From Xylographa opegraphella (lineage: Eukaryota): a stretch of 20,000 bases of DNA. Shown here in pieces: positions 2,231-17,543 of this stretch. How positions within the stretch are numbered: position 1 is the first letter of the stretch; each line of letters begins with the position of its first letter. The notes beneath the pieces were generated by a model that did no database searches, was not told where the DNA came from, and saw only the letters and a program-made list of their open reading frames with translations. The DNA is taken from NCBI GenBank assembly GCA_022813865.1, contig JALDZX010000005.1:664583-684582 (forward strand), read 5' to 3'. A program made the position numbers and the translations under genes.

Positions 2231-2435
2231 AAAAAAAAAAGGCAAAAAGTTCGCAAAGCCTTTAGGCTTTGCTATGAAACTATTCTTAACAGATTTTGAT
2301 ATCTGGTGAATGTTTGCAGTCCTGAGCGTAGCTCAGGCCGAGGATCGAACCTCGGGGGTTTTGCCTACGATCTACGCTATCTATAAGCGGCGCTAGAAGG
2401 AGCCACTGTCGACTCCTTAATTCCGGGCCGTCGAT
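2231..2435 (-). ncRNA. Candidate RNA polymerase III-type structured small RNA (~185 nt), unidentified
   Basis: On the minus strand: TATAAATATATAA at 2465-2453, B-box-like GGTTCGATCCT at 2351-2341, six short hairpins, then T5 (2248-2244) and T10 (2240-2231) tracts. No tRNA cloverleaf found. The 5' end is estimated from TATA spacing. Confidence 0.45.
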
Positions 2436-3144
2436 GAACTAAAACTATCTTATTATATATTTATAGGTAATATCTGTCCTGCATTAGTACCATGCCTTCC
2501 CTTCCACATTTGAGCTGTCTACATTACCTCGACCATAACGCCAACCAGCATTCCGAGCAACCACGTCGTCTTTCATCAACGATACTGCCTTTGTATTACT
2601 CAGAATATGTATTGACGGTTGAAGATATTGGCCATCGTTGTATACAGAATTCATCTTGACCTGAGCAGTAAAGACACTCATACCCGCCTTCGGACTTGCT
2701 TTGTTAACAGACTCGGAGAACACATCCTCTTGACCGTCGACTACCACGTCGCTATCTTTTCCTCATGGCTTACGTCTATGCATCGAACTGCGCAATATAT
2801 TCAGCACAACGCAATCTAATTGCAAGCTCATATCAGTCAAGACTTCGCTGAAGCACAAGTATTATGCAAAGATCTGCTCGCAGAGTGAAATACATTGTTG
2901 GTAACTCCTCAGTACAGAATTTGCATTGATGTCTTCCGCTAATTTTATCAAGAGGGCCTTCAATCGTTACTGAAAGACTCCGCCGTCAGATTCTTGACGT
3001 GGTCACATACAACTCCACAAATAGGGGTTCGAATGCAGAATGAAAGATATGGTATTCTCGAGAGTCAATCGATATTCGATATTACTGATGGATATGTAGA
3101 AAGCCCTTTACCAACATACCTTGTATCTGTCGGCCAACAATCTA

Positions 3145-4613
3145 CTACCCAAGCCCGTGTGCATAACTGAATGCCTGACCCAAACCAACCATATGCGCCA
3201 ATGCTGCTAGGACCACCATAACATGAAAGATCTGATGACTACTTCCCGCAATATCATAACGATGGGACCATCTTTCAGGGACCTTACTGATGTGAGCCAA
3301 CCTGTTATATCACCTCATATAGAGAATAGGATTTCCATTGACGCAGGACCAGTAATGGACATCATAGGAATCCAACAGGCTTACCCTCGTAGCATAAGGA
3401 ATCACGCCTAGGAAATTTAGGAGAGCCATCAAACACATCCACCCAAAGCCCATCCTATGGTAGGCAATTTCCAAACCATAGAGCACGATAGCATGGATAA
3501 CGAACCCAATTGCGGACAACCCGAGACCAGCATACATACCTGCTCGAAAATGTAAAGATGACACGAATCGTGGCGAGACGGTCAAAAGCCCCGAAGCCAT
3601 AGCAAGTATAGAGACCTGTCTATTGGTCAGAGGGTTTCCAACAAATACACATCGAATGGAACACACTAATGCCCAATACAGCGCTCTTAGCTTCCAGTTG
3701 CCATAAAAAGCATAAAAGATTGAAGCTACCGTTGCTCCCCACATCAAAGCGATAATTCCCAGGTAGTCTAACGCAACGCCGGCAGCCCGAAATTTCTTAT
3801 TTGCATCGCATATTGTGTGGAAACTAGCAACTATCAAGCCTGTACATCTTCGTGGTGATTATGCGTAACTTACATGGCGGAGAGTAGGAAGCAAAGAGAC
3901 ACGCTCGAAAAGAAGAGGCTCAAGACAACAATATCTCCATATTGAGCCACATTCCGGTATGGGAACGGCCCGAGCCAAGAGATAATCGGGATCGAAACAA
4001 AGATAATAGCACCGACAAGATGAGAATATATGTTTACTAGATCATGGGCGATGTAATGAGCAGGACGACGCCCGATCTTGGATACAGGCTACCCCTACCA
4101 GTTTCATTATGGAGAAAGATCAGACTATGGACCGATTCCTTCACGGATTTAATTGGTGGCCTTGAAGAAATCAGCACTATGCATATATTCTCGCTGTTCA
4201 AGGATACTTACCGGTAGCCAGTTGTGATATATATGTTATGCCTGTCACATGTCAGTCCTGACTCAGAGACATTCGTTCAAGGTAAGAGTCCGACCGCCGA
4301 AAGCTCACTGAACACGATCAACTCAGTAATAGGGTAAAGACGGTCGGATATCGAACGTACTAATTGACTTCCATCTAGACAAAGACGGCCTTCCGTTTGT
4401 ACTCAGAGCGGCAGGGACTGGCTTCGGAGCCACACTATGCATTGCGACACACGGGTCAAGCGCCTTCGGATCTTCAGACTCAATCCACTGATTTCGGGCG
4501 AATCGGTGAAATGGCCGGCCATGCGACAATAGAATATTATCTCGAAGATCCGAATATGTTCGGAATGCAGTATCCCTTTTGGACGGATAGAGAGTTCGCA
4601 ATTCCGCTGCCAT
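3145..4613 (-). CDS. PAQR / haemolysin-III family membrane protein (IZH / adiponectin-receptor-like), 8 exons
   Basis: Introns at 4360-4308, 4294-4242, 4211-4161, 4098-4037, 3873-3824, 3666-3616 and 3384-3283. The spliced product has [20 protein letters not shown] (ExxxNxxxH), SAIFH (SxxxH), DYLGI, and [17 protein letters not shown] (HxxxH). Stop TAG at 3147-3145. Start uncertain: ATG 4613 (CACCATGG context) or ATG 4442. Confidence 0.9.
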
Positions 4614-5391
4614 GGTGTCTCCCCCGGACGACGAGCTCATCATATCCATGTTGCACCTTGACGGGTAGCAAAACTTTTGTTAAACCAATTACCAATGAGA
4701 CAGCGAAGTATATTCAAGACCTAGTGAATAATAGGAGCTCCATTCATCCAGAGCGGGCCCAAAACACGATGTGAAGGAAAGGCATGAATGTGCACGAATC
4801 AAATTCACACAATCCAACGATCAGCCATACAGAACGAATACCCCGATAGTGACGAAACATCATTATGACGATCTCATTTTGAATGGGTAGGTCTGTGGCT
4901 GAAATGTCACCATTGCACAATGGCAGGCGTCGCTTTGCTGCCAAGCCAGATTAGAGGGGTCAGGCTGGGTCATTTGGTTACGTGATGGTGGCTTGCTTGG
5001 ACGTCTGTATTGGCTACCAAATGAGGTAGGACAACAATGACAGGCGCCGAGGAATGATTGTTATCCACCAAGGCGAATGGCGTTGTCCATCCTACCATAC
5101 CCAGTACATACCGTAGCTAGAAGAAAAAGCTGGTTTTTGCGTAGACGTTGGGGAAGGCACCCGCTAGTCATTTTGGGATTCGTCATCAGATCTCGCCGCG
5201 GATTATCCTTCCTCCGGTGAGAGTCAGATTAGCGAGGATTGATATCGAACCTCGGCTGGTGGAACGCGTATTGCAAACGCTGCCTATAGATACTCTACCT
5301 TATCTGTATGAACAACTGCCCAACTATCATGGGCAATCTTAAACGATAACATTCCTCAAAGAGCTTGAACAAAAGAATCTCGATAGCACGC

Positions 5392-6195
5392 ATGGATCCA
5401 TATTCAGGTAGACAATCTTCCATCCCTCCCGTATTTCTATTCCCAGACTTAAACACTTGCACCAGTCGAGCACAACGTCAAGCCCGCGCCGCCATCAAAT
5501 CAGCCCCCTCGCCGACCAGACTTCTCCACCTTCTTCTCCACACTCGAGCTCGTCGATACCTCGAACACCACCAATGTGCACTCGACTCCCATCCCCGGCG
5601 ACATATCGTCCGTCTTTCGGATGCTTGCAGAGGGCTACGAACGAATGCGCCAAGACCAGGACCCACATGCCGCTACACATACACAAAACGACGACCATGA
5701 TACCGACTCAGGTCACAGCCGATTCTTGGAGGGTCTGATACAAACGTTGCTGAGCGAGGCTGATACGCCTCCGAAGGAGGTCAATGGAGTCAGTGATGAG
5801 TTCTTGGCCGGTAGGAGGATCATCGCGGCGCATGACCGTAGAGCATCAATCTCTAATTTGCAACTATAGAGTTAGAGCGCGTTCCGAGGAAAGCCTTGAA
5901 ACAGGATATGTCTTGTCCTATATGCAACAACCCATTCCTGGACGGTAAGCCGCAACTCTATTCCCAATCATCTCGTTCGCAACTGACACGGCAGCCAACA
6001 GATGAATACCCTCTAGTCGTCCGCCTTCCATGTCACAAGTCCCATATCTTCGACCTCGAATGTATACAACCCTGGCTCAAGCTTCATCCTACATGCCCAC
6101 TCGATCGGAAAACCCTGGTGAAGAAGAAAGAGCCCCCTCCGCCGCCACCAAAAGATGAGGAAGAAGAGGGCGATTATGACGAGATGTACGCATGA
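5392..6195 (+). CDS. Small RING-finger protein, putative E3 ubiquitin ligase (resembles yeast YBR062C family), 4 exons
   Basis: Exons 5392-5407, 5466-5810, 5870-5944 and 6002-6195 with GT-AG introns. C-terminal motif: GVSDEFLAELERVPRK..CPICNNPFLDDEYPLVVRLPCHKSHIFDLECIQPWLKLHPTCPLDR. Confidence 0.88.
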
Positions 6196-6391: not shown

Positions 6392-7552
6392 TCACTCTTC
6401 CCCTTCATAAAAGTTCCCCCCCACCTTCCCCAACAAATGCTTCCCGTACACCACCTCCCCCAACCTCTCCACGCCCCCACTCTTCGCCACACACTCCTCC
6501 AACGGCCTCACCCGCGCCTCGAAATCCGGCTCCACGAAGAACGGCACACTGACCCGGAACCCCTCCCCCCGATGCACGACCCGATGCCTCGTGCTCCGCC
6601 ACAGGCCGTTCGTCCAGCGCTCCATCATATCCCCGATGTTAACCACCAGCGCCCCCTCCACCGGATCGGCCGCAATCCAGCCCTCCCCTCCCTTCCCCTG
6701 CACCTGCAACGCCCCGCGCGTCTCATCCGCCAGCAAAAGCGTCAAGCACCCATAGTCCGTATGCTCCCCGCACGAAACACCCCCCTCCCCCCCCGCCGGC
6801 AGAGGCGGATAGCCAATCGCGCGCATCACCCAAAAGCTGTCGCGACACTTCCCCACAAAGAACTCCCGATCGCGCAACCCCAGCGCCCAGCCCATGGCGC
6901 GCAGCACGCCCTCCCCGAGCCGCAGCACCTCCCTCACATAGAGCTCATACACGTCGCGGAACTCCGCGGGCCGGTCCGGCCACAAGTTAACGCCGCGCAG
7001 CAGCTGAAAGGGCGGGACGCGGCCGAGGGCGTCCTCGCGGAGCACGAGCGGCTTGCCCTCGGGGTCGAGGAGGGGCCCGTCGGCGCCGCCGCGCTGGCGC
7101 AGGCGTGCGAGGCCGTAGGGCCCGTAGATGCGCACGAAGGTGAGCTCCTTGCCGGTGAGGCCGTGCTCCTCCGCGGGCAGGACGGGCCGGTACCAGTCGA
7201 TGGCCTCGTGGGCGTCGCGCTGGCCGCCGGTGACGTTCGTGGATGGGGGTTGGTAGCCGCGGGCGCCGTCGCCGTAGCCGTGGCCGGGGGCTTGGCGCGT
7301 GATGAGACGCTTCTCGAGCGGGGTGGCGGTTGTGAAGAAGGTGCGGGCGAGGGAGAGGACGCGGGTGGTGAGGGCGGGGGGCAGGCCGTGGTGGGTGAGG
7401 TAGAAGAAGCCGTGGGTGGTGCAGGCGGTATGGAGGCAGGTGGCGCAGGCGGTGAGAGCCGAGGGGGAGGAGGGGGAGAGGAAGGAGGAGATGTCGATGA
7501 GGGGGAGGGACGGGCTCGAAAGGTTGGTTGTGGGGTTCGGTGTCGAACTCAT
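6392..7552 (-). CDS. 2-oxoglutarate/Fe(II)-dependent dioxygenase, isopenicillin N synthase-like (DIOX_N plus 2OG-FeII_Oxy)
   Basis: LPLIDIS..AC..HGFFYL N-terminal domain. Iron ligands HTD (GEHTDYGCLTLL) and distal H (RSTRHRV). NIGDMMERWTNG and the RVS 2OG-binding motif are present. Intronless, 386 aa. Confidence 0.95.
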   Translation of the reverse strand: MSSTPNPTTNLSSPSLPLIDISSFLSPSSPSALTACATCLHTACTTHGFFYLTHHGLPPALTTRVLSLARTFFTTATPLEKRLITRQAPGHGYGDGARGYQPPSTNVTGGQRDAHEAIDWYRPVLPAEEHGLTGKELTFVRIYGPYGLARLRQRGGADGPLLDPEGKPLVLREDALGRVPPFQLLRGVNLWPDRPAEFRDVYELYVREVLRLGEGVLRAMGWALGLRDREFFVGKCRDSFWVMRAIGYPPLPAGGEGGVSCGEHTDYGCLTLLLADETRGALQVQGKGGEGWIAADPVEGALVVNIGDMMERWTNGLWRSTRHRVVHRGEGFRVSVPFFVEPDFEARVRPLEECVAKSGGVERLGEVVYGKHLLGKVGGNFYEGEE

Positions 7553-7829
7553 CCCGGGTGGAAAAGTTCTCAGTTCACGAGAGATTTCGTCAAGTGGATA
7601 ACATGGATTATTGAGGGTAGACTAATCGAGGTGTCTATATTTTTGTAGATGATGGGATATCGTAATTTCATACTATCTCTAAATAGGTAGTTATCTACCC
7701 CAGCACCCGGCAGGATTGTATATAAACCGAAAACTGCCACCAAAATTCACACCTGCGTATAATCGTAGGTTATTCAGCCCGCTAAATGCAGAAACTAACT
7801 TTTGGCGTTTTGGTTCATATCGCAGTCGC

Positions 7830-9311
7830 CTACATTATCACTTCGTTAGAGACATCCTAGGGTAGGGTTAGCTTTCTCGAAGTAGCATGACAGTGGGGAA
7901 GTGCAAAACCGACCCGCTTCAACTCCTTGTTGGGTAAGCAAACACAGTTCTGCACGCGGACCTCGTCACCAACACCGCAGTCTTTGCCGAGGATGGTGAT
8001 GCTCTGAACCTTGACACCATTCTTGATGATACTTGTAGTGTGACTGCTCACGGGCGTTGGTGTGCCTTCGACGCGTGCCCAAGCTCCAACACGGCCACCC
8101 CAACCGATGATCGAGTATAGCACACATGCATCGTGCTTGATCTCGACATCTTCCAGAACAACAGACTCCTTGATTCGAACCCCAGCGCCGATCACGGCAC
8201 GCGGACCAACCGAGACGTTTGGACCCAGCTTGGCGGTTGGGTCGACTTCGGCAGTGGGATGGATGAAGACCGGAGGAAGAATGTTAGCTGATGGTGCAGC
8301 TAATTCTTCGGAGCCGGACTGGAAAGCCTTCTGAAGGTAGAGGGCATTTGCTGGAACCGCCGATCCTGCAGTTTTGATCTGTCTCCAAAAGTCCTTGGTC
8401 TCAAGAACAAAAAATTGCTTGCTATCAGCTAAATCGGAGAGGATGTCTTGCTCCAGACGAAGAACCTCGTTCTTCTCTCCATCCTCTTGCTGATTGGCGA
8501 AGTAAGAGTTGTCGAGGTTTTCCGCTGAAGGATAAGAAACAAGTCGTGGACGATCCGTCCTGCGCTTGATGGCTGACCTAATCGAAGGGAAGATGGTTTC
8601 TGTGGAGAAGAGATAAACTCCACAATTGATCAGATTGGAGATGTGGGACTCGGGCTTTTCAACGTAGTGAAGAACTCGTTTGGTGTGGGCATCTGAAACT
8701 ATGCATCCGAAATTTGTGGCTGCTTCGTTGCTCACTCTTGTCCCTAGAATGACTGCTTCTGCATCCTTCTCGTCAAACAGCTTCAGCATGTCATTGAGCG
8801 GGAACGAGCAGCACACATCCGCATTGAGCACAAAAAACCTCTGTGGTCCTCCCTTGAGGATAGCATCACGGAAGTGGTACAATCCTCCAGCAGTCCCTAG
8901 AGCCTGGTATTCTCTGAGGTATTGTATCCGAATCTGAGGAAGTTCTCGGGCAGAATCTTTGATGAAATCCCTGAATACGGACTCGTCGTAGTATCCCACC
9001 AGTATCACCTCTCGAACGCCTGGAACCTTGGCGACAGCTTGCAAGCAATGCCAGATGATGGGATGACCTGCGACATCGAACAGTGGCTACGATGGTCAGA
9101 CATTGGAGTTCGTATCTTGTATACTGGGAATGTACTCACCTTGGGAACATCCAAAGACAAAGGTCGAAATCTAGTCCCTCGGGAAGGGCCTCCGACCTAG
9201 TTTTTTATGAGCTTCGTACGGCTATTTCTGCTATTGAAAGCTTACTAGTATAACAGCTTTCGTGGGCTTTGCGATGCCATTCTTCTCCCGGGAGGGGATA
9301 TTGAGGCTCAT
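7830..9311 (-). CDS. Mannose-1-phosphate guanylyltransferase, alpha/regulatory type (GMPPA / Mpg2-like), 4 exons
   Basis: Exons 9311-9246, 9196-9140, 9086-7914 and 7856-7830. [31 protein letters not shown] is the GMPPA-type signature. Also LNADVCCSFPL, HYVEKP, a C-terminal hexapeptide beta-helix, and the end DVSNEVIM then TAG. Confidence 0.95.
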
Positions 9312-15258: not shown

Positions 15259-15439
15259 CAAGCATGAGATGTGAACCACTACTGTCTGTTTCTGAGGACT
15301 AGATACTGCAAGTAAGGCCTGGTCTGGTGTCGTCGCAACGCATTTCGCTGATATATTATTTCCTGTAGTTGAACTGACAGGTATCGGCATCATTTGTCAT
15401 TGCGAGTCATTATCAGTCATCCAACCGAGGCTTCCGCAT

Positions 15440-17543
15440 ATGGCACAGATTGTCTACACCGGCGTTGCAGACAATGCTGGTGTTTCTGGTACCCTCTTCC
15501 AAGGCGCAAAATTCTGGTTCTCGCGCCGAGTTCCAAGCAGATCGACGTTCATTGAGCAAGTGAAGGCCAATGGAGGTGAAGTTGTCTCATTGGAAACATT
15601 CGCCGACATCAAGATCGTGGATCATTTGAAGTCGGACAATGCGCCAGGAACCTACTCGTACCGGTATATCGAGCGGTCTATCCGCAATAGTGTTCTTGAA
15701 GATCTCGAGGACCATCGTGCGGGACCTGCCAGGAATTCCATCAGGCCTGCTGGGGCAGTTGGTAAACCCACGAAAGGCACTCGAACACCATTTACTGCAG
15801 CCGATGACCAGGTGATTTACGATTTGGTCGATGAGACTGAGCGGAAAGGAGGAGCGACTTTTGGGAACGAGATATACAAGCAACTGGGACTGATCGTACG
15901 AAACAGCTACGAAACATGGCCAAATCTTACGCTAATTAGAGTACAGAATCCCCGACATACGTGGCAATCATGGCGAGAACGATGGGTGAAGATACTGAGT
16001 AATAAGCCCAGACCGGCTCGCGTTCCAAGCAATGCACCACCAACTCCTCCCAACGATCAGTCCGAGGCTATCACCCAGAAAACACCTAAGATTACTGCTA
16101 AGCCTGCTGCGGTGGCCTTCACAGCAGAAGATGCTAAGAAATTATTGAACGTGGCCGAGAGTATATGTGACATCCTTCCTGAAAACGATGAGGAGGCGTG
16201 GCAGACTTGGGCCGACAAAGTCAGTGGCTTGTTCCGCTGTATTCTTCCGTAACTCAACTGACCCTCTCGTGTAGTACCCTCACCACTCTGCTCATGAGTG
16301 GCGCAACTTCTGGAAAGCGAACATCCGTCCAATACACCTGAAGCAGCAGAGGAACTCAAAGACGGCAACGCCAAGGCAGATGGAATCTGTCGTGGATGGC
16401 AACGTGACCCAGAAGCCCCAGGAAGATGCCGATAACCCTCTCCAAATCAACAGAGCTATGGTGTCTACTGCGATCTTGTCGTTGTCAGAGAAGCCAAAGA
16501 CTCCTGTTCCATCGAAGCACCAAGGTTCGAGTGAAGTTTCCGACGATATCATTATACCAGTCAAAGTCGTACGGCCTACGGGAGGAGAACCCCCAATTAT
16601 CAGCAAGTCACCGAAACGGAGTCGAGACAGCTCGGTGGAAGCGCCCCCGAGAAGCTCACCTCCGATCAACCAACAGAGTCCATATCGCAAGCGACGCAGA
16701 ATAGAACAAGGGCTTCCAATACAGAAAGAGATACCGTCAACCCCTGAGAGAAGTCCTCTCACCATACGACGTCATCCCCCCACACCGGTGCAGTCTAACA
16801 TCATCAAACTCGAAGAGGAGTCAGATGTGGAGTCTGCGGTTGACGATGAAGATGAAAATGGTGACTACGATGCAGTGCCAGACCAGCCAGCTTCGCAATC
16901 ACTTTCGGAGCCCGAGCAGGCTTTGGCAAAGATAAGGAATGTCTTCAAAGACCCGAGACAGCTTATGGACTTTGATTTGCCAGCGCCCGAAGGAGGTTGG
17001 GCCGAGAGCGACGTTCAAGCAGATCCAGATGAGGAGCTGGAGATTCCTCAATCCATTAACAGACGGGAAGACACACAAGCGATACTGCAAGGCCAAACGC
17101 CAGCGTTCGATTTCTCGATCCCTGAGCCAGAGGAAGGATGGGACTTACTGATGCAACCTCCCCCTTCCTCACCACCAGTCCCCGTGGATGAAGCAGGTGA
17201 CTATGTCAGCGACGAAGGGCCAGAGGAGCTCATGGACGAGCAAGAAATGATTGCCATCCTAGAAAAGTGGCTGGATAGCCGGATGGAGAGCGGTGTTGAC
17301 GCCGAGATCTTGGGACTCGCTCTGAAAGCCACAAACAATGATCCGGAGCTTGCCGATCTCGTGCTGGAATCGTTGGACCGGGATGAAGGAGTTCCGGCTG
17401 ACGTTAGAGGTATATGGACGGAAGAAGACGACGAATGTCTGGACGCGGTGGATGCGCGGAAGATCAACGCCATGATCGAGAAGCACGGGCAGGACGGGCT
17501 CGACCGGAGGTACGAGTTTTTGAGGAAGTACAATGCCAACTAG
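15440..17543 (+). CDS. RAP1: Telomere-associated protein Rap1 (BRCT, Myb, second Myb-like, acidic linker, Rap1 C-terminal domain), 3 coding exons
   Basis: BRCT: LFQGAKFWFSRRVP..ANGGEVV..YSYRYIERSI. Myb: RTPFTAADD..GNEIYKQL..NPRHTWQSWRERW, after removing in-frame intron 15896-15946. Intron 16220-16274 gives YPHHSAHEWRNFW. C-terminal domain: ALKATNND..GVPADVRGIWTEEDD..KHG..RRYEFL. Confidence 0.93.

Follow-up and report, generated by a model that had tools for sequence, protein, structure and literature searches.

Introduction

Several described RNAs and elements resemble, in one respect or another, the locus reported here. In Neurospora the primary transcript of milR-1 is ∼170 nt in length, depends on a TATA element and ends in a run of T residues; RNase Z frees milR-4 from a tRNA (Yang et al., 2013, PMC3547838). 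The Afu candidates, Afu_182 (RF01496) among them, are described as intergenic, conserved RNAs of ∼200 nt from the Pezizomycotina with no assigned function (Joechl et al., 2008, PMC2377427); the A. fumigatus clone Afu-262 measured 225 nt on a northern blot (PMC2377427). 'Intergenic structure 2', which has 24 covarying pairs and was reported from 207 genomes, has a mean length of 144 nt and is mostly single-copy, intergenic and restricted to the Pezizomycotina (Gao, Jones and Rivas, 2021, PMC8216456). Low-copy tRNA-derived SINEs occur in A. fumigatus (PMC5063351), and at extra-TFIIIC (ETC) sites TFIIIC is bound without polymerase (PMC3395662). The bacterial Y RNA YrlA carries inside its closing stem, in this order, a T stem-loop, a closed acceptor stem-loop and a D stem-loop (Chen et al., 2014, PMC4201824).

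Here a candidate RNA element is described from the minus strand of the window, the whole 20 000-nt stretch of DNA that was analysed. A preliminary description had proposed a Pol III-transcribed non-coding RNA or a tRNA-derived, SINE-like unit, built of six hairpins. The element is probably an uncatalogued, single-copy small RNA gene of the Pol III type, possibly derived from a tRNA.

Results

Setting of the element

The element is housed in a non-coding gap, and the ORF check found no long ORF across it. A PAQR/haemolysin-III gene (3145–4270, minus strand) ends near 3145, ∼680 nt upstream of the TATA box of the element. This gene is an ordinary neighbour, as are those for a RING-H2 protein (5350–6195, plus strand), a 2OG-Fe(II) oxygenase situated inside an island of 70% GC (6392–7621, minus strand), GDP-mannose pyrophosphorylase A (7857–9086, minus strand) and Rap1 (15296–17543, plus strand). 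The assembly is that of an ascomycete and is 24.7 Mb in size; the closest named relatives of the mannose-1-phosphate guanylyltransferase gene in the window are from lichen-forming fungi, with 97% to an entry that bears the label Lambiella insularis, and the fungus is therefore most likely a Lecanoromycete.

Promoter, start and terminator

The TATA box TATAAATA occupies 2465–2458 on the minus strand, the strand of all element coordinates unless stated. It starts at 2465, ∼30 nt upstream of the predicted pyrimidine–purine start at A2435, in agreement with the spacing first proposed and close to the 31 nt of the U6 gene in this genome, where the TATA box lies at −31 from the Rfam start and the B box is found inside an intron. 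The likely start was placed from A2435 to G2432 because of this U6 spacing. A canonical A box was absent ∼20 nt after the start, the only candidate being a 12-nt variant that lies 56 nt past the start, at 2379, and is disrupted in the related organism C (see below). Since the canonical A box is missing near the start, the TATA box must set the start, as it does in yeast SNR6. A TATAWW word was located between −45 and −25 in 21 of 30 tRNA genes of this genome.

The B box GGTTCGATCC begins at 2351 and spans 2351–2342; it follows the GTTCRANNC pattern and lies inside the unit, in a T-arm-like hairpin with a 6-nt loop, as had been described. The putative terminator (2248–2231) consists of the two T tracts already noted, a T5 (2248–2244) and a T10 (2240–2231), separated by GCC. 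Both are outside the aligned part of organism C. Four or more T residues followed by G[CG][CT] were present within 40 nt of 14 of 30 tRNA genes in this genome. The transcript predicted from the promoter layout and the fold runs from 2435 to 2244 and would be ∼192 nt long to the end of T5, or ∼200 nt if read to T10, rather than the ∼185 nt initially suggested.

The B-box 10-mer is uninformative alone, as it was found at 38 sites in the genome, compared with 37 for a reversed control. Of the 19 loose B-box motifs in the window, one had both a TATA box upstream and a T5 downstream, as did three of the 38 sites of GGTTCGATCC in the genome. It is the combination of B box, TATA box and T5 that counts, the B box by itself being at chance level.

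The U6 gene of this genome (contig C198, SNR6-type promoter) shares with the element a TATA box ∼30 nt upstream, an internal B box, an oligo-T end and a single copy. The likeness is one of promoter layout only: neither an ACAGAGA box nor any other U6 sequence occurs in the element, and the U6 gene is a separate locus in which an intron carries the B box. That gene, from C198:307,326 onward, contains an apparent spliceosomal intron which carries its B box, and the intron-containing U6 gene of fission yeast is arranged alike. Just upstream of the TATA box of the element there are branch-point-like and 3′ splice-site-like words (2488–2474), which are kept in organism C amid changes, and a possible 54-nt intron extends over window positions 2474–2527 on the minus strand, with its branch-point and AG words among those retained.

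Predicted fold

Both strands of the element folded beyond chance, with z −4.72 for the minus strand and z −3.25 for the plus strand; no shuffled sequence of 200 folded as low on either strand, and none of 600 GC-matched windows of 195 nt drawn from loci of the same genome folded as well as the element. A plus-strand reading, prompted by an Sm-like word at 2292 and a weak U2 score, was rejected, the plus strand having no TATA and terminator layout and the lower z.

The predicted minus-strand fold comprises two domains. The first is a 5′ hairpin (2430–2388), short and interrupted at ∼16 bp, within a 5′ domain (2438–2376) that admits two folds, a single long hairpin or a pair of short ones, the pair lying 2.7 kcal/mol above the best fold. 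The second is a five-way junction of ∼127 nt (2366–2240), closed by an 8-bp stem in which 2366–2359 pairs with 2240–2247 and which is complete only when T5 is read through. Inside the junction the T-arm-like hairpin (2355–2338), with 6 bp and the 6-nt loop, holds the B box, and a 7-bp helix with a 3-nt loop (2337–2321; pair probabilities 0.99–1.0) stacks on it without a gap, acceptor-like but in permuted order. These are followed by a long irregular arm (2318–2275), which includes the CAGAT/ATCTG stem and from which a GG-containing D loop is absent, and by an 8-bp hairpin just before the terminator (2272–2253), outside the aligned part of organism C.

All six stems of the preliminary description proved to be exact reverse complements at their positions, and five of the six form in the predicted fold; the 4-bp stem (2375–2389) does not. 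The stem at 2397–2418 does reach 8 bp on the minus strand, through the pairs U2412–G2403 and C2411–G2404. The 8-bp stem that draws four arms into one junction had been overlooked.

Conservation in a related organism

Three DNA runs contain the stretch, these being the probable source and two other organisms of one study, B and C. Organisms B and C share an equal 31-mer fraction (0.07) and organism B was not counted as support; conservation is therefore that seen in one close relative, organism C, found through shared 31-mers. Out of the region 1900–2800, organism C aligned at 80% only over 2313–2518, with 29 substitutions, 20 of which could be placed and nine of which are near the alignment ends. 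The counts by segment cover the fully reported zone, ∼2344–2488, with segments drawn after seeing the data.

Bases changed or deleted in organism C were distributed very unevenly. They amounted to 8 of 19 in the upstream segment, 1 of 22 in the TATA region, 6 of 9 in the spacer between TATA box and start (2447–2439), 3 of 63 in the 5′ domain, 11 of 24 in the linker and 0 of 8 in the B-box core (2351–2344). Positions 2456–2469 were unchanged, while a second TATA-like word at 2459 was hit by a change at 2455. The switch from variable to invariant sequence falls at 2438, a few bases from the start predicted by the TATA box. The 5′ domain has three substitutions and no indel, with identical runs of 38 nt (2401–2438) and 15 nt (2376–2390). 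For this 63-nt block the scan-corrected P was 0.5, 0.019 and 0.0005 at a background divergence of 20, 25 and 30%, respectively; the background was put at ∼30% by eye from the loose alignment ends, where the flanks are ∼70% alike. A TATA box and a start region that are both kept, with a spacer free to vary between them, form a pattern that marks a transcribed minus-strand gene, and together with the U6-like promoter layout it supports the proposal of a Pol III non-coding RNA from this strand.

The predicted helices fared differently. No compensatory pair was found when the alignment was read by hand. In the 5′ hairpin the pairs 2415–2400 and 2427–2391 break, and 2424–2395 is kept with a change from G-U to G-C; the 4-bp stem and the CAGAT stem lose one pair each. 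All three changes of the 5′ domain affect the 3′ arm of the long hairpin, and the fold with two short hairpins would put two of the three in a loop. Two deletions and one insertion remodel the T stem, for which a form with a bulge and a canonical 7-nt loop can be drawn. The 7-bp helix has no indel, and substitutions could not be placed there; the long irregular arm falls below 80% identity at a loose alignment end. In the closing stem 3 of the 8 bases of the 5′ strand differ, and the partner strand is outside the aligned part. As no compensatory change was found and several stem pairs break, conservation is seen in the sequence and not in the six-hairpin structure. The earlier view of the six hairpins as a conserved feature is not supported by this one relative, pairs being broken in three of the readable stems. 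These data suggest that the element is under cross-species sequence constraint in one relative, and that what selection visibly keeps is sequence, over the first ∼60 nt as well as in the TATA and B boxes.

Comparison with known RNA families

No match to Rfam at the gathering score was obtained over the whole window. With E up to 10, five weak matches were found around the element, all far below the cut-off, and two weak matches were found in the region upstream of it. The U2 model, which has a cut-off of 46, scored 12.2 bits at the locus, on the plus strand. The claim that the element is not a tRNA was borne out: ARAGORN found no tRNA match over the sequence, the element is not among the 32 matches to RF00005, and the locus has no canonical or intron-containing cloverleaf, which would need a D arm, an anticodon arm and a T stem of 5 bp bearing a 7-nt loop. 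U1, U4, U5, U3 and 5S, checked at this locus, gave no Rfam match at E ≤ 10, and the U1 and U5 motifs are absent, in keeping with the reported lack of hallmark motifs. Proper loci for SRP, MRP, RNase P, U2, U6 and Afu_182 lie elsewhere in the genome. As far as Rfam reaches, then, the element belongs to no known family, as had been proposed, and no Afu family matched the locus at E up to 10. The comparison covers those Afu families that have an Rfam model.

A full-length orthologue of Afu_182 was located in this lichen fungus at C198:598,112–598,314, with 119.9 bits. The element resembles Afu_182 in being intergenic, conserved and of about the same length, but Afu_182 has this orthologue of its own and the Afu families with Rfam models do not match the locus. 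The range reported for Afu_182 is Aspergillus (bioRxiv 10.1101/2025.10.16.682787), narrower than the orthologue found here would imply. A second U2-like copy was also seen, at a sub-threshold 37.2 bits, at C206:22,025–22,132 on the minus strand. It has an insertion of ∼33 nt after the branch-point recognition sequence, with a branch-point-like word and no clear 3′ AG.

No snoRNA box C was found in the element. The element showed no long complementarity to U2, U6, SRP, MRP, RNase P or Afu_182, the best stretches having a raw length of 9–11 nt with G-U pairs included. LSU rRNA was not found in the assembly, nor rDNA in the viral contigs. A scan of viral contigs for homologues gave none. Of two pattern scans of metagenomes, the first gave no match and the second eight, all of which were chance on inspection; a scan of prokaryote genomes with an over-loose pattern gave at least 120 matches, taken as chance. 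The RNA was named nowhere in the literature found, in a search with subscription papers largely outside its scope.

Copy number

BLAST against the 24.7 Mb genome gave one match, the locus itself. A 20-mer of the invariant block, searched with three mismatches allowed, found itself and one further site, which is about the number expected by chance. A model of the locus found no second copy in 86 sequences totalling 259 kb, a set that takes in each of the 38 sites sharing its B-box 10-mer. No target-site duplication was present, the longest words shared by the flanks being 5 and 6 nt. On the tests run the element appears to be single-copy, and it is not a SINE family; the SINE-like alternative of the preliminary description, with neither a second copy nor a target-site duplication, was not upheld. 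AfuSINE2 and MgSINE are comparable in having a B box, a degenerate A box and a body unrelated to tRNA (PMC5063351), and differ from the element, which is single-copy, lacks a target-site duplication, has a leader of ∼45 nt before the tRNA-like part and has a conserved external TATA box.

A second unannotated Pol III-like unit, of ∼205 nt, was observed on the plus strand of contig C162, at ∼284,440–284,680 (1303–1540 of the extracted locus L020). It comprises a TATA-rich tract, a leader of ∼70 nt, a degenerate tRNA module, a T arm of canonical form that carries the B-box 10-mer of the element, and a T5. A long hairpin replaces the anticodon arm, and the unit could be a long-intron tRNA gene missed by the models. 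Rfam gave no match to it at E up to 0.5 and the fold z was only −0.85. Homology between this unit and the element was not supported: with the B box masked, between 92 and 225 of 500 shuffles scored as well.

Likeness to tRNA and to bacterial Y RNA

A degenerate stretch resembling a D arm or A box (2383–2364) lies upstream of the T arm and has its best match in positions 8–29 of the tRNA-Cys of this genome, over 19 of 22 columns and with the order and spacing of a tRNA. The match is weak, as equal scores were reached by 102 of 1000 shuffles and by 146 of 2000 windows from the genome (P ∼0.07–0.10). Alignment to whole tRNAs (glocal) was not significant (186 of 1000); the comparison covered 30 tRNA genes from a total of at least 32. 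Like the tRNA-Cys of this genome, the helix that follows the T arm ends in GAGCU, and the invariant loop of the 5′ hairpin ends in AGUGG, a D-loop word. Descent from a tRNA is plausible for the element, at a level short of significance in the alignment tests.

In circularly permuted tRNA genes the elements of the 3′ half precede the 5′ strand of the acceptor. The element is alike in that its T arm, acceptor 3′ strand and discriminator position come before the acceptor 5′ strand, but the acceptor is closed by just 3 nt and there is neither a D arm nor a pair of complementary anticodon-stem halves. A circularly permuted tRNA gene was rejected when none of 150 in silico re-joinings was recognised by ARAGORN at a lowered threshold. 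A canonical 5-bp acceptor (2388–2384 with 2335–2331) was rejected as well, at a cost of 12 kcal/mol relative to the best fold.

Two tRNA loci elsewhere in the genome were unusual. At C204:45,921–45,981 a tRNA with a Glu-like anticodon ends after the T arm, without the 3′ strand of the acceptor. At C146:15,081–15,566 a tRNA gene has very AT-rich flanks, unlike the other loci, and may lie in an AT-rich region or in foreign DNA.

In the predicted fold the arm order inside the closing stem is also that of bacterial YrlA as described (PMC4201824): a T stem-loop, a closed acceptor-like stem-loop, here of 7 bp, and a further arm after two unpaired bases. The element differs from YrlA in lacking a GG-bearing D stem-loop in the third arm and in having an extra 5′ domain of 65 nt, and the likeness is one of topology in a predicted fold, not of homology. 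By eye, the YrlA motif GNCGAAN0-1G was absent near the 5′ end, the nearest word, GTCGACAG, being different. No TROVE/Ro60 gene was matched in this genome, in an assembly that may be incomplete and in a search whose control was positive in 2 of 14 genomes. With no D loop, no Ro-binding motif and no match to Ro60, the element is not a Y RNA. A bolder and rather doubtful proposal would make it a eukaryotic counterpart of the permuted tRNA mimics of the YrlA type: a conserved Pol III RNA with a T loop on a closed 7-bp helix and an invariant 5′ hairpin docking on the T loop as a tRNA elbow, working on a tRNA-binding protein without Ro60 and belonging to a class of tRNA-derived Pol III RNAs in lichen fungi, of which the similarly arranged C162 unit would be another member.

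Discussion

The function of the element can only be inferred. The reading we prefer, with a probability of roughly 0.52, is a single-copy Pol III gene with a promoter of the U6/SNR6 type, the RNA of which, ∼190–200 nt long, acts in an RNP, its 5′ 60 nt being read by sequence and its T arm and 7-bp helix mimicking the top half of a tRNA. TFIIIC would bind the internal B box and TFIIIB the upstream TATA box, and transcription from ∼2435 to the oligo-T at 2248–2231 would yield a stable RNA; the layout is evident in the DNA, and transcription is predicted from it. The gene may well have arisen from a tRNA gene that was left without its anticodon arm and gained a 5′ leader and a 3′ trailer. The RNA would most likely act whole, as the RNA component of a small RNP. 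Its near-invariant first ∼60 nt would be the end read by sequence, and the T arm on the closed 7-bp helix, as a look-alike of the tRNA top half, may compact and protect the RNA or dock a tRNA-binding protein. La would bind the oligo-U end.

It is rather unlikely, among the alternatives to be weighed, that the element is the Pol III primary transcript of a microRNA-like RNA of the Neurospora milR-1 to milR-4 type, in which the invariant 5′ arm of the 5′ hairpin would give the mature small RNA, with a promoter or a handle for RNase Z in the tRNA-like part. The Neurospora transcripts are Pol III units of 170–200 nt in a filamentous ascomycete with a TATA-like element, hairpins and a T run, and milR-4 has a tRNA-like part followed by hairpins (PMC3547838). 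The confinement of the three 5′-domain changes to the 3′ arm is what would be expected of a star strand. Against these points, the 5′ hairpin is short and interrupted, the invariant run extends over the loop, and the genome offers the 20-mer from the invariant block no near-perfect partner beyond one chance-level site with three mismatches. Furthermore, the hairpins after the tRNA-like part, the position of milR-4, are the less conserved part here. As described (PMC3547838), milR-1 has no B box and milR-4 has intact tRNAs; the element, for its part, lacks a long stem of the Dicer type.

The element might instead encode no functional RNA, being a decayed tRNA gene or an ETC-like site whose conserved blocks are DNA elements serving neighbouring genes and whose transcript is incidental. 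This is unlikely, although a B-box 10-mer no commoner than its control, stems that break without covariation, a comparison limited to one close relative and the precedent of ETC sites, which hold TFIIIC without polymerase (PMC3395662), would all suit it. A DNA element leaves unexplained a fold below that of 600 of 600 genomic windows, as well as the joint conservation of TATA box and start region across a free spacer, and sixty near-invariant bases are long for factor sites.

It is decidedly unlikely that the element is a homologue of an RNA which has been reported but has no Rfam model, either intergenic structure 2 or an unassigned A. fumigatus clone such as Afu-262. The 144-nt average and the single-copy, intergenic occurrence of intergenic structure 2 (PMC8216456) recall the element and its junction domain, but the available account of that family, compared here by description, gives it no B box or Pol III feature. 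Two literal pattern scans yielded no homologue from soil fungi, which is weak evidence against. Even as a homologue of a reported RNA, the element would have no known function.

A very unlikely reading is that of a 3′-end structure in a Pol II transcript, either the PAQR/haemolysin-III mRNA or a spliced non-coding RNA, with the 'TATA' serving as a polyadenylation signal. The element is on the strand of the PAQR gene, and the branch-point-like and 3′ splice-site-like words upstream of the TATA box are kept in both species; yet the element lies 700–900 nt beyond the stop codon and downstream of an AT-rich tract, and a B box followed by T5 and T10 suits Pol III and is needless in a UTR. One copy of a tRNA-derived SINE or MITE is scarcely tenable, for although a tRNA-like B box is joined to an unrelated body and A. 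fumigatus has low-copy SINEs of tRNA origin (PMC5063351), the searches by BLAST, by 20-mer and by locus model found no copy beyond a single chance site, the flanks share words of only 5–6 nt, a retroposed copy would not carry an upstream TATA box, and the homologue in organism C sits in homologous flanks.

The non-tRNA Pol III genes of filamentous ascomycetes are known from a few model species, and no description of such RNAs for lichen fungi was found in the literature searched. Should the preferred reading of an RNP-forming Pol III gene be true, a conserved, single-copy and uncatalogued Pol III RNA would represent a gene class missed by standard annotation, for which the locus offers an exact and cheap target for testing. 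If the element were intergenic structure 2, that family would gain its missing promoter, ends and polymerase. If the permuted module of T arm and acceptor were conserved, the RNA would be a tRNA mimic with the topology described for bacterial Y RNAs.
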